A stretch of 23,768 bases of DNA from IMG/VR virus record IMGVR_UViG_2778261225_000015; one strand, given 5' to 3'. Shown in pieces: positions 4,622-23,768 of the stretch. The notes under the pieces were generated by a model. That model ran no database searches and was not told the origin of the DNA. It worked only from the letters and a program-made list of their open reading frames with translations. A program made the translations under genes and the position numbers. The stretch's first letter is position 1. Each line of letters opens with the position of its first letter. The DNA is from a virus. Lineage: Duplodnaviria > Heunggongvirae > Uroviricota > Caudoviricetes.

Positions 4622-5965
4622 CTAGCTTGGGGTAACTGTAACCTGACGAGAAAAAACAACAGGCTCCTTCAATTGCTCACATATAATTTTAAAATTAATA
4701 ACTCCAGAGCCAATCGTTAAGGGAATGATGACTATTTCCTCATACTCAACAGTTAAGCTCTGTAACACTTTTTTCGCACGCAACGTGATTTTATGGTCCT
4801 CTTTCATGACCCACTCATCTTGGTTAACTGTTCCTAAATCAGCCATCCGTTTAATTATTGCTGGCACTTCGAAATGAGGTTTAGCCATTACCATCGATGT
4901 ATCATCAAAAATACCCATCCTAAAATTTTCGAGTGACATTATAGCACTGAGTCTTTTTTTATGCTTACTTATTGGGGACTCAGGGATTTTTAATTTCGGC
5001 TCTTTTATAAATAAGTCTTCATTAGAACCTTTAAGCACTATTAGGAATTCAGGAAAATCAATCTCAACATAAACATTTGACGCAAAAGTCCTCCCATTAT
5101 TTCTTAAAACGGGCTTCACTGTAATTGCATTGTTTTTGTAATTACAGTGCAATCTCATTTTTTTATTATATAAATCCACATCTTTATCAGTAGGCAGTGA
5201 AGAGTTATATGATTCAATCTCATCAATGGTGATAGTGTCCTTCAACTCAAGAGGTACCGCTTCCTTGCATAGTTGTGGAAGGTAATCCTGATAAGTCGAC
5301 TCCACATCCACCGTCAAAGCTAAGTCATTATCAATCATGCTCAGCTCTAATTGAGGTGCATCGCTATGTAATTGGCTTTCATATTCGCGGACTTTTTCCC
5401 TTAATTTTCTATTTTCATTAGATAGCTCAGCCAACTCGGCGGTAATCTCTTTAGATGCGACCTGGTCACCGCGCACCCATCCTATTCGTGGATTTCGTCG
5501 CATTACTTTTGGTAAGGCGATAGCAACCTTCGTCGCTAACTCATCAATTGTCTCCCAAAAATCACACATTTTGTTAGCTTTAGCTTTTTCAATAAAAGCA
5601 TTTAGTTGCTTTTCTTTTTGAGGGTCACTTTCTCGTTCATGTGGTTTTGTTAAAACGTCCCTCCCTCTAATAAAAGCCAACACCGGTATATTTAATGATT
5701 TAGCATAGTTATATTCCATTTCAGTATAGCTAATACCATCTTTAGAAACGGACCCATACTTATGCCCAATGATAATCACATAATAATCACTAGCATCAAT
5801 AGTCTCCTTTATTATATCCCACTGCTCAGAGTCATCAGCGCTAAACATCTCCATGCCAACTGGAAAGTGGTATAAACTAAGGACCGTTTCTATGATTTTT
5901 TTGCGAGCATCAATTAAATCGACGTATGTAGAGCTCACAAATACTTGATATTTTTTATTTTCCAT
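4622..5965 (-). CDS. Cargo protein, 447 aa: N-terminal TIR-like/DUF4062-like domain (KYQVFVSSTYVDL...), central coiled coil, C-terminal domain of unknown function; candidate anti-phage defence or exclusion protein
   Basis: Start ATG at 5965 preceded by GAGGA with 4-nt spacing; AT-rich coding sequence embedded between GC-rich S and V genes; N-terminal motif recalled as typical of DUF4062. Confidence 0.75.
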   Translation of the reverse strand: MENKKYQVFVSSTYVDLIDARKKIIETVLSLYHFPVGMEMFSADDSEQWDIIKETIDASDYYVIIIGHKYGSVSKDGISYTEMEYNYAKSLNIPVLAFIRGRDVLTKPHERESDPQKEKQLNAFIEKAKANKMCDFWETIDELATKVAIALPKVMRRNPRIGWVRGDQVASKEITAELAELSNENRKLREKVREYESQLHSDAPQLELSMIDNDLALTVDVESTYQDYLPQLCKEAVPLELKDTITIDEIESYNSSLPTDKDVDLYNKKMRLHCNYKNNAITVKPVLRNNGRTFASNVYVEIDFPEFLIVLKGSNEDLFIKEPKLKIPESPISKHKKRLSAIMSLENFRMGIFDDTSMVMAKPHFEVPAIIKRMADLGTVNQDEWVMKEDHKITLRAKKVLQSLTVEYEEIVIIPLTIGSGVINFKIICEQLKEPVVFSRQVTVTPS

Positions 5966-6002
5966 AACATCCTCACTTGTATAGAAAATAAAATACATAA
6001 AA

Positions 6003-6470
6003 TCAATCAATAGATCTAGCCGCCTCAGCTAAAGAAACCATAATTATGTCATGAATCATATTTTTTGATTCATGATCAAACCCGATAAGCATTCGGGCGT
6101 CATACTGTACCGGCGCACTGTTTCGCCCAGGCTTATCTTTGAGACCGTACTGATGCACATTCGCCATCCGTTGTACCTTGCCGGTAAATTCCACGACCGC
6201 CGAGTCATTCCCCGCTGTGGCTTTCATAAAGCGACTGGTGCGGAGCTTAGCGAACATTTCCCGCTTAACCCGGCCTGTTTTGGCTTTTACCGGCTGGCGT
6301 TTTCGGGCGGCGTAAGGTGTCCCGTCCGGGGCTTTCTGCATTTTAATCCGGCGCTGTTGACGGGCTCGCAGGGTCTTAGCGATATCTGCGGCCATTCTGC
6401 GACGGGCGGCAGGAGACAGCGCTGCTATCAGCCCCGTGAGCGTATCGTCAAAGGGTTTAAAGTCATTCAT
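6003..6470 (-). CDS. S: Tail completion protein S
   Basis: 155 aa, P2 gpS-like sequence and position; overlaps R by 8 nt. Confidence 0.85.
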   Translation of the reverse strand: MNDFKPFDDTLTGLIAALSPAARRRMAADIAKTLRARQQRRIKMQKAPDGTPYAARKRQPVKAKTGRVKREMFAKLRTSRFMKATAGNDSAVVEFTGKVQRMANVHQYGLKDKPGRNSAPVQYDARMLIGFDHESKNMIHDIIMVSLAEAARSID

Positions 6471-11980: not shown

Positions 11981-13750
11981 ATGACCACTACAACCGACAC
12001 ATCACTACTCAACGATCCGCGACGACAGGCCGCGCTTTTGTTCTGGCAGGGCTATTCCGTGCCACAAATCGCGGAACAGTTGCAGGTCAAGCGCCCCACG
12101 GTGCAGAGCTGGAAGCAGCGCGATAAATGGGAAAAAACCGCACCGTTAAACCGGGTCGAGTTCACGCTCGAGGCTCGGCTGATTCAGCTCTATGCAAAGC
12201 CTGACCTGACGGCTCATGACTTTAAGGTCGCGGATTTTCTGGCGCGCCAGATGGAACGCCTCGCGCGGGTCAGTCGTTACGGTCAGACAGGTAACGCAGC
12301 GGATTTAAACCCGAACGTGGCCAACCGCAACAAAGGGGAAAAGAAGAAGCCGAAAAAGAACTTTTTCAGCGAAGAGGCTATCGACAAGCTCGAAGAGATT
12401 TTCCTCGACCAGTCTTTCGACTATCAGCTCGAGTGGTGGCGCGCGGGGCTGGCGCACCGTATCAGGCACATCCTGAAATCACGACAGATTGGAGCGACAT
12501 TCTACTTTGCGCGAGAGGCGCTGTTACAGGCGCTGAAGACCGGCCACAACCAGATATTTTTATCGGCCAGTAAGACACAGGCCTATGTATTTCGAAAATA
12601 CATCATCGCCTTTGCCCGACTGGCTGGCGTCGAGCTCACCGGCGACCCGATTGTGCTCGGCAACAATGGCGCGGAGCTGATGTTTCTCGGCACCAATGCC
12701 AACACGGCGCAGAGCCACAACGGCGACCTGTATGTCGATGAAATTTTCTGGATCCCCAACTTCCAGAAGCTGAAGCGCGTTGCCGGTGGCATGTCTTCAC
12801 AGGAGCATTTGCGCACGACCTATTTTTCGACCCCCTCATCGCTGGCGCACGGTGCCTATCCGTTCTGGTCGGGTGAGCAGTTCAACAAGGGACGCTCAGA
12901 CAAGAGCGAGCGCGTCGATATCGATATCAGTCACGCAGCACTCGCGAAGGGTGTCGCTTGCCCGGACGGCCAGTGGCGGCAGATTGTCACCATCGAGGAC
13001 GCACTCGCTAAAGGGTGCACACTGTTTAACATCGACACGCTGAAGCGCGAGAACAGCGTCGATGAGTTCCGTAATCTGTTTATGTGCGAGTTCGTCGACG
13101 ATAAAGCGTCGGTATTCCCGTTCGAAGAGCTGCAACGCTGCATGGTCGACAGCCTCGAGAAATGGGAGGACTACACGCCATTTGCCGACCGGCCTTTCGG
13201 TCACCGCCCGGTGTGGATTGGTTACGACCCGTCATTACGCGGCGACAGCGCCGGGTGCGTCGTCATCGCGCCGCCAGTCGTCGCCGGTGGACGATTCCGA
13301 ATCCTCGAGCGCCATCAGTGGAAAGGGATGGATTTTGCTCAACAGGCCGAATCCATTCGCGAGCTCACGCAGAAATATACCGTCGAATACATCGGCATCG
13401 ATGCGACCGGGCTCGGACAGGGCGTTTTCCAGTTAGTGCGCTCATTCTACCCGGCAGCGCGTGAAATCCGCTACACGCCGGAAATGAAAACCGCAATGGT
13501 GCTGAAAGCCAAAGACACCATTCGCCGCGGTTGCCTCGAGTACGACGTCAGCGCGACCGATATCACGCAGTCGTTTATGTCTATCCGCAAAACCATGACC
13601 AGCAGCGGGCGCAGCTCGACCTATGAGGCCAGCCGCACCGAGGAAGCCAGTCACGCCGATCTCGCGTGGGCAACCATGCACGTATTAATCAATGAGCCGC
13701 TGACCGCCGCGACCGGCGAACAGTCATCCAGTATTATGGAGTGGAACTAA
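11981..13750 (+). CDS. P: Terminase ATPase (large) subunit P
   Basis: Start taken at ATG 11981 with GAGG 4 nt upstream (the ORF-track start 11957 is a GTG); P2 gpP-like over its whole length; stop TAA overlaps the Q start (TAATG). Confidence 0.9.
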   Translation: MTTTTDTSLLNDPRRQAALLFWQGYSVPQIAEQLQVKRPTVQSWKQRDKWEKTAPLNRVEFTLEARLIQLYAKPDLTAHDFKVADFLARQMERLARVSRYGQTGNAADLNPNVANRNKGEKKKPKKNFFSEEAIDKLEEIFLDQSFDYQLEWWRAGLAHRIRHILKSRQIGATFYFAREALLQALKTGHNQIFLSASKTQAYVFRKYIIAFARLAGVELTGDPIVLGNNGAELMFLGTNANTAQSHNGDLYVDEIFWIPNFQKLKRVAGGMSSQEHLRTTYFSTPSSLAHGAYPFWSGEQFNKGRSDKSERVDIDISHAALAKGVACPDGQWRQIVTIEDALAKGCTLFNIDTLKRENSVDEFRNLFMCEFVDDKASVFPFEELQRCMVDSLEKWEDYTPFADRPFGHRPVWIGYDPSLRGDSAGCVVIAPPVVAGGRFRILERHQWKGMDFAQQAESIRELTQKYTVEYIGIDATGLGQGVFQLVRSFYPAAREIRYTPEMKTAMVLKAKDTIRRGCLEYDVSATDITQSFMSIRKTMTSSGRSSTYEASRTEEASHADLAWATMHVLINEPLTAATGEQSSSIMEWN

Positions 13751-14778
13751 TGAGCAAGAATCGCAACAACAAGCGACAGCAGCCGCGCCCCCAAAGTCAC
13801 ACCGCCGCATCGGCACAGAGCATGGAGGCATTCACCTTTGGCGAGCCGACGCCGGTACTCGATCGCCGCGACATTCTCGATTATGTGGAGTGCATCGACA
13901 ACGGCCAATGGTATGAGCCGCCGGTGAGCTTCTCCGGGCTGGCGAAGAGCATGCGCGCCGCCGTTCATCACAGCTCACCGATTTACGTGAAGCGTAATAT
14001 TCTGGTGTCGACCTACATCCCGCACCCGCTGTTATCGCGTCAGGATTTCAGCCGGTTCGTGCTCGATTATCTGGTATTTGGCAACGCCTTTCTCGAAGAG
14101 CGTCGCGGTCTGACTGGCAAGCCGCTAAAGCTGGAGACCTCACCGGCCAAATATACCCGTCGTGGCGTTGATGATGACGTGTACTGGTATATCCAGTCCT
14201 ACACGCAACCGCACCAGTTTTCGCCCGGTTCCGTCTTCCACCTGCTTGAGCCTGATATTAATCAGGAGCTGTACGGGATGCCGGAATACCTGAGCGCACT
14301 CAATTCAGCCTGGCTGAATGAGTCAGCGACACTGTTTCGTCGCAAGTATTACCAGAACGGCGCGCACGCAGGGTACATCATGTATGTGACCGATGCCGCT
14401 CAGAACAGCACTGACGTCGAAGCGTTGCGAAAGGCGATGCGCGACTCGAAAGGGCTCGGCAATTTTAAGAATCTGTTTTTCTACGCACCGCACGGTAAAC
14501 CGGATGGGATTAAAATTGTGCCGCTGAGCGAAGTCGCGACGAAGGATGATTTTTTTAATATCAAGAAAGTCAGCGCCGCTGACCTGCTCGACGCGCACCG
14601 CATCCCGTTCCAGTTGATGGGCGGCAAGCCTGAGAACGTCGGCTCAGTGGGCGATATTGAGAAAGTGGCAAAAGTATTTGTTCGCAATGAATTAACTCCA
14701 TTGCAAGATAGGATTCGTGAATTAAATCATTGGTTTGGTGATAATTTAATTAAGTTCAAGCCGTATACCTTTGATTAA
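13750..14778 (+). CDS. Q: Portal (capsid portal vertex) protein Q
   Basis: P2 gpQ-like, about 343 aa from ATG 13750 (MSKNRNNKRQQ...), GGAG upstream; the GTG at 13741 is an alternative start. Confidence 0.9.
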   Translation: MSKNRNNKRQQPRPQSHTAASAQSMEAFTFGEPTPVLDRRDILDYVECIDNGQWYEPPVSFSGLAKSMRAAVHHSSPIYVKRNILVSTYIPHPLLSRQDFSRFVLDYLVFGNAFLEERRGLTGKPLKLETSPAKYTRRGVDDDVYWYIQSYTQPHQFSPGSVFHLLEPDINQELYGMPEYLSALNSAWLNESATLFRRKYYQNGAHAGYIMYVTDAAQNSTDVEALRKAMRDSKGLGNFKNLFFYAPHGKPDGIKIVPLSEVATKDDFFNIKKVSAADLLDAHRIPFQLMGGKPENVGSVGDIEKVAKVFVRNELTPLQDRIRELNHWFGDNLIKFKPYTFD

Positions 14779-14794
14779 GTATGAATGCAAAAAA

Positions 14795-14824
14795 TCCAGA
14801 GTCCATTATAATAATGACTCTGGA
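14795..14824. terminator. Hairpin between convergent portal gene and cargo operon; likely rho-independent terminator for the minus-strand operon, possibly bidirectional
   Basis: Perfect 9-bp stem TCCAGAGTC / GACTCTGGA (14795..14803 and 14816..14824) with a 12-nt AT-rich loop; on the minus strand it is followed directly by a T6 run (complement of AAAAAA 14789..14794). Confidence 0.5.
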
Positions 14825-14834
14825 TGAAAATGTT

Positions 14835-15521
14835 TTATTGCTTATCTTGTGGTGGTGGAACCTCTTTTTCTAAATTATCTACATACTCTCTAATATTGAA
14901 TGCTTTGTTTTTCCTTATTTCGGTAGTGTTAACCTTACTAACACCATCACGAATGTTTTTATTTATGGTGTCTATTAATTTTTGTCTTTCTTGTTCTGTT
15001 TTTATTATTTCACTTAAGAATGACTTTGCGTTTCTTGAAATGTCCGTCTGTCTATTAATGAATAGTATCGCATACACTGAAAAAACCAAGCAAGTAGTCG
15101 TTAGTGCGGAATTAAAAAATACCCCATAATAAACATTAACTTTTGTTATTGACGCTGATAACGTTAGTGATATCAAAAAAAACAAAATCAGGGTAAAAAT
15201 ATATGCAATGGTTACTTTGTTTTTAGTGGTGTCAAGAATGTATGAAGTTCTTTGATCATCAAAGTAATCCTTTATCCTTGATGGAGTGTTTGCGGGGAGT
15301 TCTAACTCCTTTATTTTATCATCAGCATCAATTAGTCGCTTAAACATGAGGCTAATGATTACGGCGCTAAAGACAGAGATCCCCTTTGAAATTATAGGAT
15401 CGAAATCAATTAAAAATGAGTATTTTGAATAAACAAAAACAATAACAAAACCACATATAAGCCCAATTACAATTGAGCTTGCTATGTTTTTTGCATATGT
15501 TTGTAACGTATTGTTTATCAT
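14835..15521 (-). CDS. Integral membrane protein, 228 aa, four predicted TM helices (2 + loop + 2) with cytoplasmic charged tail; second gene of a two-gene cargo operon
   Basis: Hydrophobic segments near residues 13-31, 47-60, 114-135 and 141-165; ATGA start/stop overlap with the upstream gene; AT-rich. Confidence 0.7.
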   Translation of the reverse strand: MINNTLQTYAKNIASSIVIGLICGFVIVFVYSKYSFLIDFDPIISKGISVFSAVIISLMFKRLIDADDKIKELELPANTPSRIKDYFDDQRTSYILDTTKNKVTIAYIFTLILFFLISLTLSASITKVNVYYGVFFNSALTTTCLVFSVYAILFINRQTDISRNAKSFLSEIIKTEQERQKLIDTINKNIRDGVSKVNTTEIRKNKAFNIREYVDNLEKEVPPPQDKQ

Positions 15522-16501
15522 GGGTTAATTACTCCGGTGTCTAGTAAGCGCAATAACCATGAAATCATTTCTTCAGCAACGTTGTCAGCAATTAGCATTC
15601 CATTGCTGTATTCAATATTAACTGAATCCTTTAGTTGAATCTCATCATTCCTGAGTATTCCTGCACCTTTTAACTCAATTGTTAAGCTTTCATCTCTATT
15701 ATCAACCAAGCCTTGTGTAATTTTACGCAACATGTCTTGCTCAGACTCGCTTGCTTTATATTTATACCCAATGGAAATATCAATTGATAGAGATTCCCTG
15801 TCAGGTGAACCATCATTTAAAATGGTATTTTTCTTCATTTCATTAATTCGATGTTCACCTACGAGCGTTTTTAATAGCTCACTAGCTGTATCATCAATAT
15901 TATTTCCATAGTAGGTTAAAGGCAGCTTTAAGCTAACATTTTTTACTATGTTACGTTTTAAAAAATCCGTATTTAGAGACAGGTTGTTTGCCTGTAAAAC
16001 GATGAAGTTATCATCAGTAATAGATAGGTTGTCTTGTAGTATGAAATTTATATAATTTTCAATATCTTTTATTCTAATAGATCTGCTTTGCAGAATTATG
16101 AAGTGGTTCTTAATCACACCAATGTATGCAATGCTTTCTAAATACTCTCTAGCATTCCCACTTGATAAATTTAATGTCTCGTATGTTAAAGCTGTTTTAG
16201 CATAATCGCTAACAGAGAAAACAGGAATGCTACTACCCGGTTCAATATAGACAATTTCCGCAAAAAACATTCCATGAATTTCTTTGCTATTTGAAAGAAC
16301 CATGTGGGCGTGAGCAGCGACATTACCATTATTATCTGGAACATCAGGGAAGAATAATCTATCAGCAACATTTGGAACCTTGATTTTCACAAGGTTTGCC
16401 AACCTATCTTGCAGGTTTGATGTTAAAAGAGCATCCTTTTTAGGAAGCATTATTGCATGGCGATAATGCAGCATTTTACTCTTATAATCTTGCGTTGCCA
16501 T
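15518..16501 (-). CDS. Uncharacterised soluble protein, 327 aa; first gene of a two-gene cargo operon at the portal/cos hotspot
   Basis: ATG 16501 preceded by AGAGGGA; no Walker A, HxH or GxSxG motif seen by eye; AT-rich codon usage unlike the phage backbone. Confidence 0.75.
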   Translation of the reverse strand: MATQDYKSKMLHYRHAIMLPKKDALLTSNLQDRLANLVKIKVPNVADRLFFPDVPDNNGNVAAHAHMVLSNSKEIHGMFFAEIVYIEPGSSIPVFSVSDYAKTALTYETLNLSSGNAREYLESIAYIGVIKNHFIILQSRSIRIKDIENYINFILQDNLSITDDNFIVLQANNLSLNTDFLKRNIVKNVSLKLPLTYYGNNIDDTASELLKTLVGEHRINEMKKNTILNDGSPDRESLSIDISIGYKYKASESEQDMLRKITQGLVDNRDESLTIELKGAGILRNDEIQLKDSVNIEYSNGMLIADNVAEEMISWLLRLLDTGVINP

Positions 16502-16572
16502 AGAATCCCTCTTGCTATGAATATGTTATACACGGAGCGAAGCAATTATGTATTGTATTGCTCTGGCGCGCA

Positions 16573-16591
16573 ATGCTATCCCCGCCACGCC
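16573..16591. other. Putative cos site (19-nt cohesive-end sequence of a 186-like phage)
   Basis: ATGCTATCCCCGCCACGCC; its reverse complement GGCGTGGCGGGGATAGCAT differs at one position from the phage 186 cohesive end as I recall it (GGCGTGGCGGGGAAAGCAT; P2 is GGCGAGGCGGGGAAAGCAC). Confidence 0.55.
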
Positions 16592-16872
16592 TGCCCGCTT
16601 TATGGGGCGGTTTTAATGCAGTTGCATGACCACTCTGGATACGCGCCAGCTGTGGCGGCACACGGCTAGAACGTGCAACCCATGTCGCATGCAAAATCAT
16701 GCGCCTGATGCATGCACAGCTAAAAAACGGGAAATTCGTGGAAAAATGGCATAAAAAACGACTTTGAAAGTGCCGGCCATGGTCAGATTTTCAAGGGCAG
16801 GCTAACGCCTCGCGCGGCTCGTTGTTCAAACCCGCTGACGCCAAAATCTAGTTTTTGCATCAGCGCGTTTAC

Positions 16873-17055
16873 CTATTCAGCCTTATAGAAAATTTCGTCT
16901 TTTTCTTCGTCGCTTTCGCTGTTAGCTAGGCCGGCAATTAGAGTTAGTGCCAGCTTCAAATCTGCCGGTTTGCAGTTGGCAATAAGAGATATCTCGGCGA
17001 TAAATTGCACACAAGCCCACTTTTGCTGCGTTCGGCTGAAATGTTTCCCAACCAT
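16873..17055 (-). CDS. Small SOS-regulated protein, 60 aa, acidic C-terminus; candidate Tum-like antirepressor (function inferred from position and regulation only)
   Basis: ATG 17055 preceded by GGGAGGG with 5-nt spacing; consensus LexA box 21 bp upstream; lies between replication gene A and cos, where 186 carries its SOS-inducible tum gene. Confidence 0.55.
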   Translation of the reverse strand: MVGKHFSRTQQKWACVQFIAEISLIANCKPADLKLALTLIAGLANSESDEEKDEIFYKAE

Positions 17056-17095: not shown

Positions 17096-17244
17096 TAACG
17101 TATTGGCAAAAGATGGGAAGAGAAAAAGTGAATCGGGTAGGTGTTGTATGTACATGATATGGATGTAAATTAATCACCTGTGAGTTTTGATGTTTCTGCC
17201 AGCACCGCAACACGATTAAGGATTTCCCTAGGCTTTGCCTGAAG

Positions 17245-19392
17245 CTATGGCGCTGCGGAGAAAATTTCACCTTTGGACGTTCCACGCAACCATTTACCGT
17301 TAATACAACTTTTGCCACCTGCTATCAGGTGCAGGGCTTCTCCCCGGCTGATGGTAATGCCGGTTGTCAGACGGATCTCGTCGATAGTTTTTTCTATCGG
17401 AGCACTTTGCTCATCTGTTCCGTGGATAAATTTCGGCCTCTTAGGTGGCTTTGGTTTCCTGATTCGGTTCGTCAGCTCTCGCCTTTCACGTCGACTCAGG
17501 GGTTTTGATAAATCGAGTTCCGGTGGATCGCTTTCGCTTCCCGTACAGTTATTGACAGAACTCCAAGGGACGGCGAAGCCGTCCTTAACGTCAACGGCCA
17601 AATCAACGGCACGCTTCGGAACAATTTTCCATTGCGTGAGCCGGGTTAAAATCGGAGTGCCAACACCAACGGTGGAGTCGTACACACCACGAATGCAGAC
17701 AGTTTCCTCACCATACTGGTTAAACTCGGTGCGCGGTTCATAAAGCGTACGCACCTGCAAATCATCGCGACGGACAAACGGACCGCCCTGCGCATTAACA
17801 TAGCCAGCCCAATCACCGGCATCGGCGGCATCATGGACAGCCGCAAACTCAACACTTAGACCGTGCGCGGTCTCGGTATCTGCAAGGCGACGCAATTCAC
17901 GATAAACAGTCACTGGTGCACCACCGATAAACTGAAACTGACGAATATGCCAGCGCGCCGCCCATGCTGAAACGGCGGGGGCTGTCTCTTTCAACAGTTC
18001 ACCGTTTTCGTCATCGGTTTCGTCATCAAGAGCGTAACCGTCGATATTTTTCGAGATGTATTTCGCGACGTAGCCGGTTGCGCTGCCTTTCTCCGGATCA
18101 ATGGCTTCTGCGTGGAAACGTGCTTTTTTGGCTTTATCGCTTTTGAGTTCGTGAAAATCTTCTTGCCATGCGTAGTCCCGAATAATGCCACGAACGGTAT
18201 CGACGTCCTCCGGGAGCATAAACATCAGCATATGCCAGTGAGGGCACCCGTCATGGTGAGGCTCTGCAACGCGGATCCCGAAAATACGAATGTCTTCACG
18301 GTGGAGTTTTGCGCGAATGCGTGCCCACAGGCCAGTGAGATAACATTGCGTATCGGATGGATTGGATCCATTCCATTTGGTGTTACGGTAGCCTGCCTTT
18401 GTCGTGGCGTGATATTTAGACGGTGCGGTCAGGGTGTAAAACTCACCAACATAACCGAGCTCATTGCAGATATTTTCAAACCCACGAATGCGGGTCATAA
18501 GCTCACAGCGTCGAATCGCAGAGTTAGCGACTGAACCATCGTATTTTTCAATCAGGCTGATACGGTTGCCGTCTTCGTCTTCAAGCTCCAGACCTTTGAG
18601 AAATTCGCGCGTCCGGCGCTTCTGTTCACGCCAGTCTGTCACGCAGTTTTTACTCGCGTAGACATGTTTTTTCTTACTGACATTTCCGATTGCGATTTGC
18701 AGGTGTTCGCGCCACGCAGCCGCAATGCGACGCAGACGGCCACGCCACCATTTTTCCGAAAACATACGGGCAATTGCTGGAGCGACTTTATCCTGATCCC
18801 AATATTTATCCCGCGACCGTTCCCACTCTGGTGGCATTATCCTGAATTGCTGAGTGATGAAACCAGCATGCATATACCAGGCATTTAATGTCTCCAGTTC
18901 ACACATGTCAGAATCGTCAATGTTGACTAACTCTGCACGGATAAAATCGGCGATATCAGCAGCCAGCAGGTCGATGTCGGCGCGTGCCATATCCGGGAGT
19001 CGGTTGTATCTGGCGACTATGTTGACCATGCGAGACGCCAGATATTGCATAAGCTGAGTATCGAAATGACAACCGAAAACAGCGGCTGATACGTTGCTGT
19101 TAATACCGGTACACTCGTATTTTTTTGCGACCAGTTCAAAACGCGGCAATGCCTTTTTGCAGAAGCTTATTAAAAAAGCATTGGCTCGTTGACTGCCCTG
19201 ATTTTGCTCCAGCACCGCAGCAGTGCGATAAACGTCAAAACGTACACACTCGGGCTGGAGGGAAAGCACCTTTCTAGCATGCAGCAAAGCCGCGAGCATA
19301 CGGTCGCGGCGATACTGTTGGTCGTAGGTAAGATATGGACTGGCTATTGCCGACCGTGGAGCATTCCACGGAAACGCGAATTGAACAGCCAA
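17245..19392 (-). CDS. A: Replication initiation protein A (rolling-circle replication endonuclease, P2/186 gpA family)
   Basis: 715 aa, gpA-like size and position; the first codon is TTG at 19392 with GGGGGA 7 nt upstream, directly after the stop of the upstream zinc-finger gene; no in-frame ATG near the 5' end. Confidence 0.85.
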   Translation of the reverse strand: MAVQFAFPWNAPRSAIASPYLTYDQQYRRDRMLAALLHARKVLSLQPECVRFDVYRTAAVLEQNQGSQRANAFLISFCKKALPRFELVAKKYECTGINSNVSAAVFGCHFDTQLMQYLASRMVNIVARYNRLPDMARADIDLLAADIADFIRAELVNIDDSDMCELETLNAWYMHAGFITQQFRIMPPEWERSRDKYWDQDKVAPAIARMFSEKWWRGRLRRIAAAWREHLQIAIGNVSKKKHVYASKNCVTDWREQKRRTREFLKGLELEDEDGNRISLIEKYDGSVANSAIRRCELMTRIRGFENICNELGYVGEFYTLTAPSKYHATTKAGYRNTKWNGSNPSDTQCYLTGLWARIRAKLHREDIRIFGIRVAEPHHDGCPHWHMLMFMLPEDVDTVRGIIRDYAWQEDFHELKSDKAKKARFHAEAIDPEKGSATGYVAKYISKNIDGYALDDETDDENGELLKETAPAVSAWAARWHIRQFQFIGGAPVTVYRELRRLADTETAHGLSVEFAAVHDAADAGDWAGYVNAQGGPFVRRDDLQVRTLYEPRTEFNQYGEETVCIRGVYDSTVGVGTPILTRLTQWKIVPKRAVDLAVDVKDGFAVPWSSVNNCTGSESDPPELDLSKPLSRRERRELTNRIRKPKPPKRPKFIHGTDEQSAPIEKTIDEIRLTTGITISRGEALHLIAGGKSCINGKWLRGTSKGEIFSAAP

Positions 19393-21189: not shown

Positions 21190-21807
21190 ATGTCAATTTG
21201 GATTTTCGCGATAACTCGGATTTTTAAGATGAAATTGGATGAGTTAGAGGGTGGAAAAGCAGTGCTGCAGCGCATCCTTGATGCGTATGGCTTCACCATG
21301 CAAAAACAACTCGGTGACTTGCATGAGCTGTCATCGGGAACAATCAGCACTTGGGTTCGGCGTAATTTTTTCCCCGGGGATGTTGTTGTTGCATGCGCTT
21401 TGGACACTGGGGTGTCTTTACGTTGGTTGGCAACAGGGAAGGGGAACAAGTTTGATGCAGACCATACTAATGGCGAAATGAAAACATTAGACCGATTGGA
21501 TATTGTTGCAGGTAAGCTGCAGGAAAACGGTCATTGGATTGTTGATGCTAACCTCTTTTCTACTGAGGCGACGCACCCCAATTACATAGTAAAAGGCCAG
21601 CAGTCCTGGATAGTTGATTTTGATATGACTGATATAGCAAATGGGCGATGGATGCTCAGTATCGACGGGGATCATGATGTCTATGACGTTGCAAGGATCC
21701 CGGGGAACAGAATAAAAGTCAGCAACGCTGATGCCGATTTTCAATGCTCAGTTTCTGAGGTTAAGTGTATTGGCATGGTGCTGGTAAGCCTGACGAAATC
21801 TAGCTAA
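21190..21807 (+). CDS. cI: CI-type immunity repressor
   Basis: HTH-containing N-terminal domain (LQRILDAYGFTMQKQLGDLHELSSGTISTWV) plus C-terminal oligomerisation domain; immediately upstream of int on the same strand as in 186. Alternative start ATG 21229. Confidence 0.8.
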   Translation: MSIWIFAITRIFKMKLDELEGGKAVLQRILDAYGFTMQKQLGDLHELSSGTISTWVRRNFFPGDVVVACALDTGVSLRWLATGKGNKFDADHTNGEMKTLDRLDIVAGKLQENGHWIVDANLFSTEATHPNYIVKGQQSWIVDFDMTDIANGRWMLSIDGDHDVYDVARIPGNRIKVSNADADFQCSVSEVKCIGMVLVSLTKSS

Positions 21808-21811
21808 CGAT

Positions 21812-22849
21812 ATGAGTGTTAAAAAACTGACATCGGGTGAATGGCTTTGTGATTTCCGCGTCGACGGGGCTGAAAGTCGCCGCGTGCGTAAGAAGTTTTC
21901 AACCAAAGGTGAAGCCGTTGCCTTCGAGCAGTATTACCGAGAAGAGGCACAAAATAAGCCGTGGATGGGTGAGAAGGAAGACCGTCGACGTTTGAGTGAA
22001 CTGATTGAGCTGTGGCATAACCTCCATGGCCAGTCGCTCGCTGCCAGCAAATCGCGATTGGCCAAACTGCACATTGTTTGCCGGGGTCTTGGCGACCCAA
22101 TCGCTACCCAGCTTACCGCCAAAGATTTCGCCCATTATCGGGATAAACGTCTCAAGGGTGAAATCGACAATGGCTATCACGCAAATTCTGAAAAGTGGAT
22201 TGCGAAACCTGTGACTGTGAACCGGGAACAACAGTACCTCGAAGCTGTTTTCAATGAGCTGAAGCGCTTGGGTGAGTGGAGTCTGCCAAATCCTCTCGAA
22301 GGTGTGCGAGTTTTCAAAGAAGCCGAAAAAGAAATGTCTTGGCTTACCCAGCCTCAAATTCGCGAAGTGCTCAATGCTTGTGAGTCATACGGGAAAATTT
22401 ATTTAACCCGTATCGTCAAAGTGTGCTTAGCGACTGGTGCTCGATGGAGCGAGGCCGAGCGTCTTACTCGTTCACAGCTTTCACCCCACAAGTTGACTTT
22501 CACTAAAACGAAGGGAAAGAAGAATCGTACAGTACCGATCCCTCGGTGGCTATATGACGAGTTGGCTCCTTTACAGGGAAAAATGTTCCACCCCTGCTAT
22601 CAGGAGTTCAAGAAAATGCTCGCTCTGACCGATATAGAGTTAGCTGAAGGGCAAAAAACGCATGTGTTACGTCATACATTTGCGAGTCACTTTATGATGA
22701 ATGGTGGGAACATTTTAGTACTGCAACGAATCTTGGGCCATTCTAACATTAGGGAAACCATGAGATACGCTCATTTTGCACCAGATCATTTAGAAGAAGC
22801 TGTAACTCTTAACCCTATTTCTAATTTAACAGGATTATATGATGAGTGA
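21812..22849 (+). CDS. int: Tyrosine-recombinase integrase
   Basis: 345 aa; C-terminal catalytic block HVLRHTFASHFMMNGGNILVLQRILGHSNIRETMRYAHF (R..H-x-x-R...Y signature). Confidence 0.9.
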   Translation: MSVKKLTSGEWLCDFRVDGAESRRVRKKFSTKGEAVAFEQYYREEAQNKPWMGEKEDRRRLSELIELWHNLHGQSLAASKSRLAKLHIVCRGLGDPIATQLTAKDFAHYRDKRLKGEIDNGYHANSEKWIAKPVTVNREQQYLEAVFNELKRLGEWSLPNPLEGVRVFKEAEKEMSWLTQPQIREVLNACESYGKIYLTRIVKVCLATGARWSEAERLTRSQLSPHKLTFTKTKGKKNRTVPIPRWLYDELAPLQGKMFHPCYQEFKKMLALTDIELAEGQKTHVLRHTFASHFMMNGGNILVLQRILGHSNIRETMRYAHFAPDHLEEAVTLNPISNLTGLYDE

Positions 22850-23768
22850 GCCAACCATCGAAACACCTCCAAGAATGACCGAGGCCAAAGTCATTAGGGT
22901 ACGCACTCGTGGTTTTTATAATTTAGTTGAGATAGGTGCAGTCTTTCTAGTTGCAAATGTAATTTTTGCTACAGGGATATTAGACTCAACCTTTTATTAT
23001 TTATTTCCCAGTGCGAGAGCAGATCTTACACATTTGCCGAGCTTTATCAGGTCAATATTCGCAGTGTCATTTGTAATCGTTTACACCATTATCTATGGTG
23101 TGTCTCCAATCCAAAGAATGTTTATGAGAATTACAGGGAGTGATTCAGTCGACAAATCATCGATGTTTAATATTGTCGATATTATAAATGAGATAAAACT
23201 ACTCAAGAAGGCTCAAGAGGAAAGGGCTGCTGCTGATGAAGATGAATCTCTGGATTTTTATCTTAAAGGTTTGATTAATAGCTCTGAAGGTCTTGCGAAA
23301 AACATATATTCTCGCGGTAGTCTTTATTTATTAGTCGGTGTTTGTTTTGCAATAGTTGGATTAGGTTTCTTCTATTCTCAATCACATGTAATTGATGCTA
23401 AGGATGATGCGGTAACCAAGGTAATGTATCTTCTCCCTAATTTTGGCGTGTTGATTTTCTTGGAGTTAATCGCATTTTTCTTTTTGAAGCAATATCGGGT
23501 TACGATGGATGAGTTTCGCTATTACGAGGCAATAAAACGTTCACGTGAGGAAAGCTATGCCATTATAAAGCTTGTAATGGCTAGCCAGAAAGATATCGAT
23601 ATGATAGACCTTCTGGATAAAATTAATTTTAGCTCAAGAGTTGGAAAACTAGAATCAGGGCAGACTACTGAAATTATTGAAGCAAGAAAATTAGACAAAA
23701 ATGAACTTGAAACCTTAGTAAAGCTTACCGAGGCAGTTGCGGGTAAGATTGGACAGGGAAATAAGTAG
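22839..23768 (+). CDS. Integral membrane protein, 309 aa, four predicted TM helices with cytoplasmic loop and tail; cargo gene downstream of int
   Basis: AGGA upstream of tandem ATGs at 22839/22842; overlaps the int stop by 11 nt; AT-rich; stop codon is the last three bases of the window. Confidence 0.7.
   Translation: MMSEPTIETPPRMTEAKVIRVRTRGFYNLVEIGAVFLVANVIFATGILDSTFYYLFPSARADLTHLPSFIRSIFAVSFVIVYTIIYGVSPIQRMFMRITGSDSVDKSSMFNIVDIINEIKLLKKAQEERAAADEDESLDFYLKGLINSSEGLAKNIYSRGSLYLLVGVCFAIVGLGFFYSQSHVIDAKDDAVTKVMYLLPNFGVLIFLELIAFFFLKQYRVTMDEFRYYEAIKRSREESYAIIKLVMASQKDIDMIDLLDKINFSSRVGKLESGQTTEIIEARKLDKNELETLVKLTEAVAGKIGQGNK

Follow-up and report, generated by a model that had tools for sequence, protein, structure and literature searches.

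A probable, highly divergent RexAB-type operon in the portal–cos hotspot of a P2/186-like prophage

The stretch of DNA analyzed here, 23,768 nucleotides of a Caudoviricetes virus (IMG/VR record IMGVR_UViG_2778261225_000015) and hereafter called the window, carries a compact operon of two minus-strand genes between its portal gene Q and its cos-like site. This operon is probably a highly divergent RexAB-type two-component anti-phage system, held as cargo in the portal–cos–gpA hotspot of a P2/186-like E. coli prophage. Its first gene, A, encodes a soluble protein that has the RexA/RdgC fold in a structural model of moderate confidence; its second, B, encodes a membrane protein with four transmembrane (TM) segments. 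We make the Rex assignment because of A's predicted fold, the architecture of the operon, the conserved pairing of the two genes, and the equivalent position that homologous pairs hold in lambdoid phages. That the operon serves defense of some sort appears very likely, and that it works in the RexAB manner is, by analogy, a reasonable expectation.

RexAB is said to have been the first abortive-infection system discovered, through Benzer's T4 rII exclusion, and how it is triggered and activated is, to our knowledge, not yet settled. As late as 2026, Rex-like systems were put at "only five" (PMC12894663). The operon considered here consists of the following elements, of which the overlap and the two Shine-Dalgarno-like motifs were read directly from the sequence:

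16501..15518, minus strand: gene A, a 327-residue soluble protein with a RexA/RdgC-like predicted fold, proposed as cytoplasmic sensor/activator
15521..14835, minus strand: gene B, a 228-residue inner-membrane protein with 2+2 TM segments, proposed as membrane effector
15518..15521, minus strand: ATGA stop/start overlap of A and B, for translational coupling
16508..16513, minus strand: Shine-Dalgarno-like AGAGGG, 6 nt 5' of the ATG of A
15532..15535, minus strand: Shine-Dalgarno-like GGAG, 10 nt 5' of the ATG of B, within the 3' end of A
14788..14825, minus strand: intrinsic terminator from RNA folding, a bulged 14-bp hairpin with a U-run, situated where B and Q converge

Predicted fold and membrane topology

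Neither protein can be assigned to a family by sequence, as an earlier model-written description of this DNA (the first-pass annotation) had stated. PADLOC 2.0, Pfam, and NCBIfam yield no family above threshold for A or B, and weak library matches to MgtE, ArcB, DUF3908, and Bestrophin-like families were dismissed, all of them lying under the curated cut-offs. The sole PHROG match of A is to PHROG 3482 (7.5e-35), which carries no function label. Motifs recurring in the near family of A include HYRH, YIEPG, NH..(I/L)QS..IRIKDIE, GYKY, and DNRDESLTIELKGAG.

Structure prediction supplies the link to Rex. The template-free AF2 model of A (pLDDT 66.8, pTM 0.63), of moderate confidence, is well predicted over its N-terminal ~160 residues and its C-terminus and weak in the middle, where an inserted domain is of low confidence. 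When this model was compared with the PDB by Foldseek, only the lambda RexA chains (8TWQ) were significant, at E-values of 5e-5 (8TWQ_B) and 5e-4 and probabilities of 1.0 and 0.99; the next match stood at E 0.065. Since RdgC is the structural homologue reported for RexA by its crystallographers (PMC11077077), the emergence of RexA and RdgC as the top fold matches of A is mutually reinforcing. The modeled protein thus has the RexA/RdgC fold, and the likeness to RexA/RexB that the first-pass annotation had proposed holds at the level of predicted fold, with lambda RexA by far the best structural match of A. By analogy, A is probably dimeric and cytoplasmic.

Protein B is basic (pI 9.05). Hydropathy places its TM segments at residues 13-31, 42-60, 103-121, and 137-155, a 2+2 arrangement interrupted by a loop of ~40 residues, and the AF2 model likewise contains the four segments that had been predicted at first pass. 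This model is all-helical, with TM4 extending into a long, charged C-terminal helix (H130-195). The four-TM partners of A-homologues share the 2+2 layout, as in lambda RexB; they align collinearly and have a recurring E..R..LI..L motif just after TM4. B also diverges faster than A: identities to the window proteins are 99% for A and 93% for B at one P2-hotspot locus (L028), 63% and 32% at another (L029), and 48% and 25% in Aeromonas (L001). Of the profile and structure searches that had been suggested as checks, Pfam and PADLOC give no family for either protein; Foldseek gives the RexA fold for A (PDB) and no significant match for B (BFVD, a library of viral structures).

The broad RexAB class is defined by structure and takes in lambda Rex, Sbash/CarolAnn, RexABpp, and Sucellos. 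The window pair shares with it a soluble partner with the RexA/RdgC fold, as judged by Foldseek on the pLDDT 66.8 model, and a four-TM partner directly downstream in the operon, an arrangement kept at all informative homologous loci. The order of genes, soluble first and four-TM second, is that of rexA and rexB. Adjacency to, and co-orientation with, a repressor gene is a further mark of the class; it is absent from the window copy and present in the homologues of the phages Perceval and phi1_092021, to which we turn below.

A family of paired genes across mobile elements

Whereas 17 clusters resembling A, and few resembling B, came from a word-seeded search, an exhaustive profile search of 1.84 billion representatives found 502 A-like clusters at E<=1e-3, 276 of them at E<=1e-10. 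Nearly all of the 502 superfamily representatives (clusters at 50% identity) are 315-360 residues long, and none of the 117 members scanned matches a Pfam or PADLOC family, RexA and RdgC included. In every informative neighborhood, near and distant, a small multi-pass membrane gene lies directly 3' of the A-homologue. The 4-nt overlap of the two genes is usual among homologous pairs, as illustrated by L001, L004, L005, L007, and L016.

The pairs recur at sites already associated with defense. At L027-L030 the pair lies in the P2 portal–cos–gpA hotspot, as in the window; in Enterobacter (L005) it is found between psu and the integrase gene, the P4 hotspot; and in Aeromonas (L001) it lies 3' of primase on the margin of a P4-like satellite, at one of the minor P4 hotspots. 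The P2 gpA–gpQ, P4 psu–integrase, and P4 primase-side sites are all described defense hotspots (PMC9122126; PMC13586616). Other pairs occur on a phage-plasmid-like contig (L010), between the Q antiterminator gene and stx or lysis genes in Stx2a phages and SfIV, and, in Vibrio vulnificus (L004, 1-12454), in an integrated element with a T7-like single-subunit RNA polymerase. With its additional genes for a family-A DNA polymerase, a T7-type helicase-primase, and a serine recombinase, this Vibrio element looks like a temperate T7-like prophage. In Shigella phage SfIV (L018, 3501-4324), the membrane partner is only 108 residues long, has three TM segments, lacks the helix that follows TM4, and abuts a transposase gene; the system there appears to be disrupted by entry of an insertion sequence.

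Among the contexts found, those in two phages weigh most. In the lambdoid phage Perceval, genes for CII and a cro-like protein are followed by CI, the A-homologue (340 residues), a "transmembrane protein" (168 residues), and then kil/gam/bet. The succession of CI, A-homologue, and membrane gene therefore occupies precisely the position of lambda's cI-rexA-rexB. The homology of window A to the Perceval protein is clear, at 24% identity over 350 residues (E 1e-22). The Acinetobacter phage phi1_092021 has the same CI-downstream plan, and its A-homologue is annotated as "DefenseFinder protein," a label that, as regards kinship with Sucellos, we take as an indirect hint only.

Weighing the RexAB assignment and its rivals

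Several results weigh against a RexAB identity. The PADLOC RexA and RexB models, which recognize the lambda proteins at 9e-110 and 8.6e-61, miss window A, window B, and four phage homologues of A, and the Pfam RexA model is absent from A and from the 117 superfamily members. Comparison by hhalign of the 117-sequence A superfamily profile with a 4-sequence RexA alignment gives a probability of 0.1%, and all such tests of A against RexA, including that against the single lambda sequence, remained below 1%; for B, hhalign of two alignments (A1, A7) against RexB and a 4-sequence RexB alignment was negative. Neither a small-database hmmsearch with filters off nor a profile search of PDB sequences gives a link between A and RexA, and the two fall into different PHROGs (3482 for A, 12654 for RexA). 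The proteins differ in character as well. Protein A is acidic (pI 5.3; 43 D+E vs 34 K+R) whereas lambda RexA is basic (pI 8.6), so RexA-like non-specific DNA binding by A is not assured; any such binding would need a local surface, or this branch may sense protein rather than DNA. B has a cytoplasmic tail of ~70 residues that RexB lacks, and Foldseek of its model (pLDDT 70) against BFVD returned nothing significant and no RexB in the top 50, small helical TM bundles being hard to match. The window operon is also not beside the immunity repressor, lying ~4.7 kb from the CI gene (21190-21807); repressor adjacency is not universal in accepted Rex-like systems (PMC11077077). Finally, a promoter scan turned up no convincing sigma-70 promoter in the 72 bp that separate cos from the start of A. 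On the minus strand, the closest candidate (17119-17092, TTCCCA-16-TATACT) is 5' of a 60-residue open reading frame (16873-17055, minus strand) that lies between gpA and cos and matches no family; transcripts from this candidate would need to cross cos before reaching gene A.

Among named systems, lambda RexAB (Pfam and PADLOC RexA/RexB; PHROG 12654/14878; PDB 8TWQ) is likewise a prophage operon of two genes, the soluble one preceding the four-TM one, and homologues of the window pair hold its cI-downstream slot in Perceval and the Acinetobacter phage. The window proteins, however, have no detectable sequence similarity to RexA or RexB. The acidic A is 48 residues longer than RexA; B, with its long cytoplasmic C-terminal helix and no RexB match in BFVD, is 84 residues longer than RexB; the window genes overlap by 4 nt where rexA and rexB are spaced by a 15-nt gap; and the window copy lies in the P2 portal–cos hotspot, not beside the repressor.

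Two similar Rex-like systems have been validated. RexABpp (PP_5643/PP_5644), from prophage P1 of Pseudomonas putida, couples a soluble ~37-kDa protein with a four-TM partner and sits downstream of a CI-like repressor; the relation of PP_5643 to RexA came from HHpred (98% probability) and structure rather than BLAST, and PP_5644 has no detectable RexB homology (PMC12894663). Both genes are needed for defense, and overexpression of the soluble partner causes membrane damage that depends on the other (PMC12894663). By description, the window pair resembles it as prophage cargo that joins a RexA-related soluble protein to a four-TM partner with no detectable RexB homology. It differs in host, in location (RexABpp being 3' of a CI-like repressor), and in the negative hhalign result for the window family as against the 98% HHpred match of PP_5643. 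Sucellos (SclA/SclB), cassette 68 of the Vibrio cholerae superintegron, is RexAB-like by predicted structure and has no Rex Pfam match; it has its own promoter, both genes are required, the phenotype is abortive, and SclB is predicted to be a transmembrane pore (bioRxiv 10.1101/2024.07.02.601686). It has homologues chiefly in prophages, and is countered by a phage pentapeptide-repeat protein (bioRxiv 10.1101/2024.07.02.601686). Again by description, the likeness is that of a two-gene Rex-like pair outside the Rex Pfam models, the difference that of an integron cassette vs a P2 hotspot. The window pair, compared with these systems by description only, may belong to the Sucellos or RexABpp family or to a parallel Rex-like branch. 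Genome-contig scans aimed at the P. putida or V. cholerae loci, made with alignment A2 and with the sequence P0113, gave no match, and cluster names looked up in the same connection were only "hypothetical protein" or lacking; P0113 itself, suspected from neighboring HicAB genes to be the P. putida system, was ruled out, as it comes from Achromobacter.

The resemblance to Kiwa that had been raised at first pass does not survive. Kiwa too combines a four-TM protein with a soluble protein of ~315-330 residues, which binds DNA as a dimer, but KwaB consists of a Rossmann-like domain and DUF4868, and KwaA of four TM segments and a cytoplasmic beta-barrel (PMC11785009). The window proteins have no Pfam DUF4868 and no PADLOC KwaA or KwaB match at E<=1, B is all-helical, and the membrane gene is downstream, whereas kwaA precedes kwaB; membership is excluded. 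E. coli RdgC (PDB 2OWL) modulates recombination on its own, is chromosomally encoded, and lacks a membrane partner, and its Pfam model matches 0 of the 117 superfamily members. Crouga, Bandua, Aernus, Toga, Reve, and Hailong, the six new P4-hotspot systems of a 2026 P2/P4 survey, were also considered, and by their described domains none fits the pair.

The suggestion, made at first pass, that this may be an undescribed system is overstated where kind is concerned. The kind is already known: Sucellos and RexABpp, both validated before, are RexAB-type systems that show no similarity in sequence to lambda Rex, and an A-homologue in an Acinetobacter phage already bears the "DefenseFinder protein" label. 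The specific family is uncharacterized, and is unlabeled in Pfam 2025, NCBIfam 2026, and PADLOC 2.0. New here are the size and breadth of this unlabeled superfamily, its presence in P2/P4 hotspots, and the finding that in lambdoid phages other than lambda it fills the rex slot.

A plausible mechanism, each step of which we infer from the parallel with lambda RexAB, RexABpp of P. putida, and Sucellos of V. cholerae, would begin with A, as a protein of the RexA/RdgC fold, detecting a product of infection, such as a phage protein or a protein–DNA intermediate of replication or recombination. Activated A would then engage B in the inner membrane, perhaps via B's long charged cytoplasmic C-terminal helix, with translational coupling setting the ratio of A to B; stoichiometry matters for lambda Rex and RexABpp (PMC12894663). 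B may in turn oligomerize or open as a channel or pore and so collapse the membrane potential. Depolarization would be expected to lower ATP and stop growth, leaving the superinfecting phage's cycle incomplete, whether by abortive infection or growth arrest. RexABpp and Sucellos each require both of their genes and show a phenotype of abortive infection or growth arrest (PMC12894663; bioRxiv 10.1101/2024.07.02.601686).

The division of labor between the proteins could be the reverse, along the lines of Kiwa or of mycobacteriophage Butters, although we think this unlikely. B would then be the membrane sensor of injection or membrane stress, or the anchor that sequesters A, and A, once released or activated, would clamp phage DNA and block replication or late transcription, with no membrane collapse. 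RexA and RdgC are indeed DNA-binding clamps (PMC11077077), the cytosolic Rex-like gp30 of Butters is an effector that membrane gp31 only restrains (PMC12894663), and in Kiwa the four-TM protein senses while the soluble dimer binds DNA (PMC11785009). The pair, however, is not Kiwa, on domains, gene order, and the lack in B of the KwaA beta-barrel; A is acidic; and the validated systems closest in architecture, lambda Rex, RexABpp, and Sucellos, use the membrane protein as effector. The faster divergence of B than of A fits a protein facing phage-imposed selection, but is common for TM proteins and not specific. A broader proposal, which we regard as doubtful though worth stating, combines several of these elements: the pair would represent a large, sequence-distinct Rex-like branch across Proteobacteria (at least 500 clusters at 50% identity), separate from lambda Rex and Sucellos and absent from the models of Pfam, NCBIfam, and PADLOC 2.0, in which fast-evolving B with its long cytoplasmic helix is the sensor at the injection site and acidic A is the effector, or recognizes a phage protein and not DNA.

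Roles outside dedicated defense seem more remote. The operon might be a membrane-toxin/antitoxin or addiction module, in which a holin-like toxin B is restrained by A and stabilizes the prophage or hotspot cargo, any effect on phage being secondary. A small four-TM protein translationally coupled to an upstream soluble partner would suit such a module, and homologous pairs are often near HicAB toxin–antitoxin genes (L010, L014), but that proximity is simply typical of prophage accessory regions. The PHROG match of B to bacteriocin immunity/production proteins is weak and not significant (E 0.056), the RexA fold is not an antitoxin fold, and in validated Rex-type systems cells survive loss of the soluble partner by deletion (PMC12894663), all of which makes the module quite improbable. 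We give still less credence to a role in the prophage's own life cycle, be it as a RexA-like modulator of the lysogeny-to-lysis switch or as an RdgC-like factor acting on recombination or packaging in the vicinity of cos. RdgC modulates RecA (PMC12315714), and the operon is 72 bp from cos. Yet only 13 of the 1,051 E. coli genomes with the cos flank have the operon, which is thus dispensable for P2-like phages; its AT-richness identifies it as cargo gained by horizontal transfer; P4-like satellites, unrelated prophages, and phage-plasmid-like contigs have the pair as well; and the obligate membrane partner would go unexplained.

If the RexAB assignment is correct, its reach extends well beyond the window. 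The combination of a RexA-fold protein and a four-TM partner constitutes a large family, of ~500 clusters at 50% identity, that sequence methods cannot tie to Rex, and that circulates in P2/P4 hotspots, lambdoid immunity regions, Stx phages, phage-plasmid-like elements, and Vibrio and Aeromonas mobile elements. Many pairs now labeled "hypothetical protein" become testable Rex-type candidates, among them an unannotated defense candidate in E. coli lysogenic for this P2-like phage. The family also offers natural diversity for study of how the soluble and membrane partners make contact, notably through the E..R..LI..L helix after TM4 of B and the HYRH, YIEPG, and DNRDESLTIELKGAG motifs of A. Were the distinct-branch proposal to prove true, "Rex" would be an ancient and widespread defense superfamily with several working modes, and not a lambda curiosity.

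Insertion site and surrounding prophage

The operon, of ~1.7 kb, has genuinely been inserted between portal gene Q and cos. The features that frame it are:

13741..14778, plus strand: portal gene Q (Pfam Phage_portal 3.3e-14; RefSeq "phage portal protein"), convergent with B
14779..16562, strand not applicable: AT-rich variable insert of ~1.78 kb from the portal stop to the conserved cos flank, from the GC profile
16574..16591, minus strand: cos-like core GGCGTGGCGGGGATAGCA, an 18-mer that bounds the hotspot, 72 bp 5' of the start of A
17245..19392, minus strand: replication gene A, or gpA (Pfam Phage_GPA 2.4e-128), on the other side of cos

Pfam also identifies a 186-type CII, CI, and integrase beyond gpA, and together with the portal and GPA matches these mark the host element as a P2/186-family prophage. 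The cos-like core at 16574-16591 resembles the P2 cos 19-mer, and the termini of the linear P2-like phage records Midge, EtG, and PHB48 map to window positions 16563-16592. Such mapping of termini, with the Pfam portal match, bears out the earlier placement of the operon between Q and a cos-like site on the strand opposite to Q. From the portal stop to the cos flank is 1,785 bp here and ~170 bp in two related E. coli prophages that lack the operon.

The remaining structural claims of the first-pass annotation are upheld too. The two minus-strand reading frames, of 327 and 228 residues, share the ATGA overlap exactly as described, and the proposed ribosome-binding sites correspond to AGAGGG (6 nt) and GGAG (10 nt) 5' of the respective ATGs. 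The contrast with a GC-rich backbone is marked, the operon having 32.9% GC vs 52.8% for Q, 56.7% for P, and 51% for gpA (51-57% overall). RNA folding of the minus strand over 14784-14840 yields the expected terminator hairpin: a bulged stem of 14 bp at 14794-14825 with a dG of -15.9 kcal/mol and a z-score of -4.65, matched by 0 of 200 shuffles and followed by a U-run 3' of the stem. A consensus terminator scan overlooked this hairpin owing to the scan's own definition of a hairpin.

The P2 gpA–gpQ/cos interval is a documented defense hotspot (PMC9122126; PMC13586616), as the first-pass annotation had recognized. It is defined by variable, compositionally foreign genes between gpQ and gpA, beside cos, and the operon conforms to that description. 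The cos flank is present in 1,051 of 5,426 complete E. coli genomes, and in all 13 of those that carry the operon both genes are annotated as "hypothetical protein." The exact sequence of protein A occurs on more than 600 contigs. At the P2-hotspot locus L028, the portal is 95% identical to that of the window and gpA 34%; a portal kept and a gpA exchanged point to recombination at or near cos, with the operon moving with the portal side.

The 2-kb query spanning window positions 14700-16700 is 100% identical to E. coli FORC 064. In RefSeq, the gpA of that strain is a pseudogene with an internal stop, and its span maps to window positions 17170-19392; the open gpA frame of the window stops at 17245, ~25 codons short of the annotated FORC 064 span. 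The prophage may be replication-impaired, or gpA may merely be a C-terminal variant.

Two further AT-rich stretches lie elsewhere in the window. An island at 4622-6010 (minus strand; GC 0.34-0.41), in the tail-gene block between late genes for 155- and 225-residue proteins, encodes a 462-residue protein that begins with a DUF4062 domain (Pfam 1.9e-28) and for which PADLOC gives no match; the location agrees with the minor P2 defense hotspot "within tail genes" (PMC13586616). The other stretch, at 22839-23768 (plus strand; GC 0.36-0.41), continues past the end of the window and holds an open reading frame of at least 309 residues, whose overlap with the integrase stop is 11 nt and for which neither Pfam nor PADLOC gives a family. 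A location of this sort suits the minor integrase–att hotspot of P2-like prophages, and the prophage may therefore hold three cargo loci.

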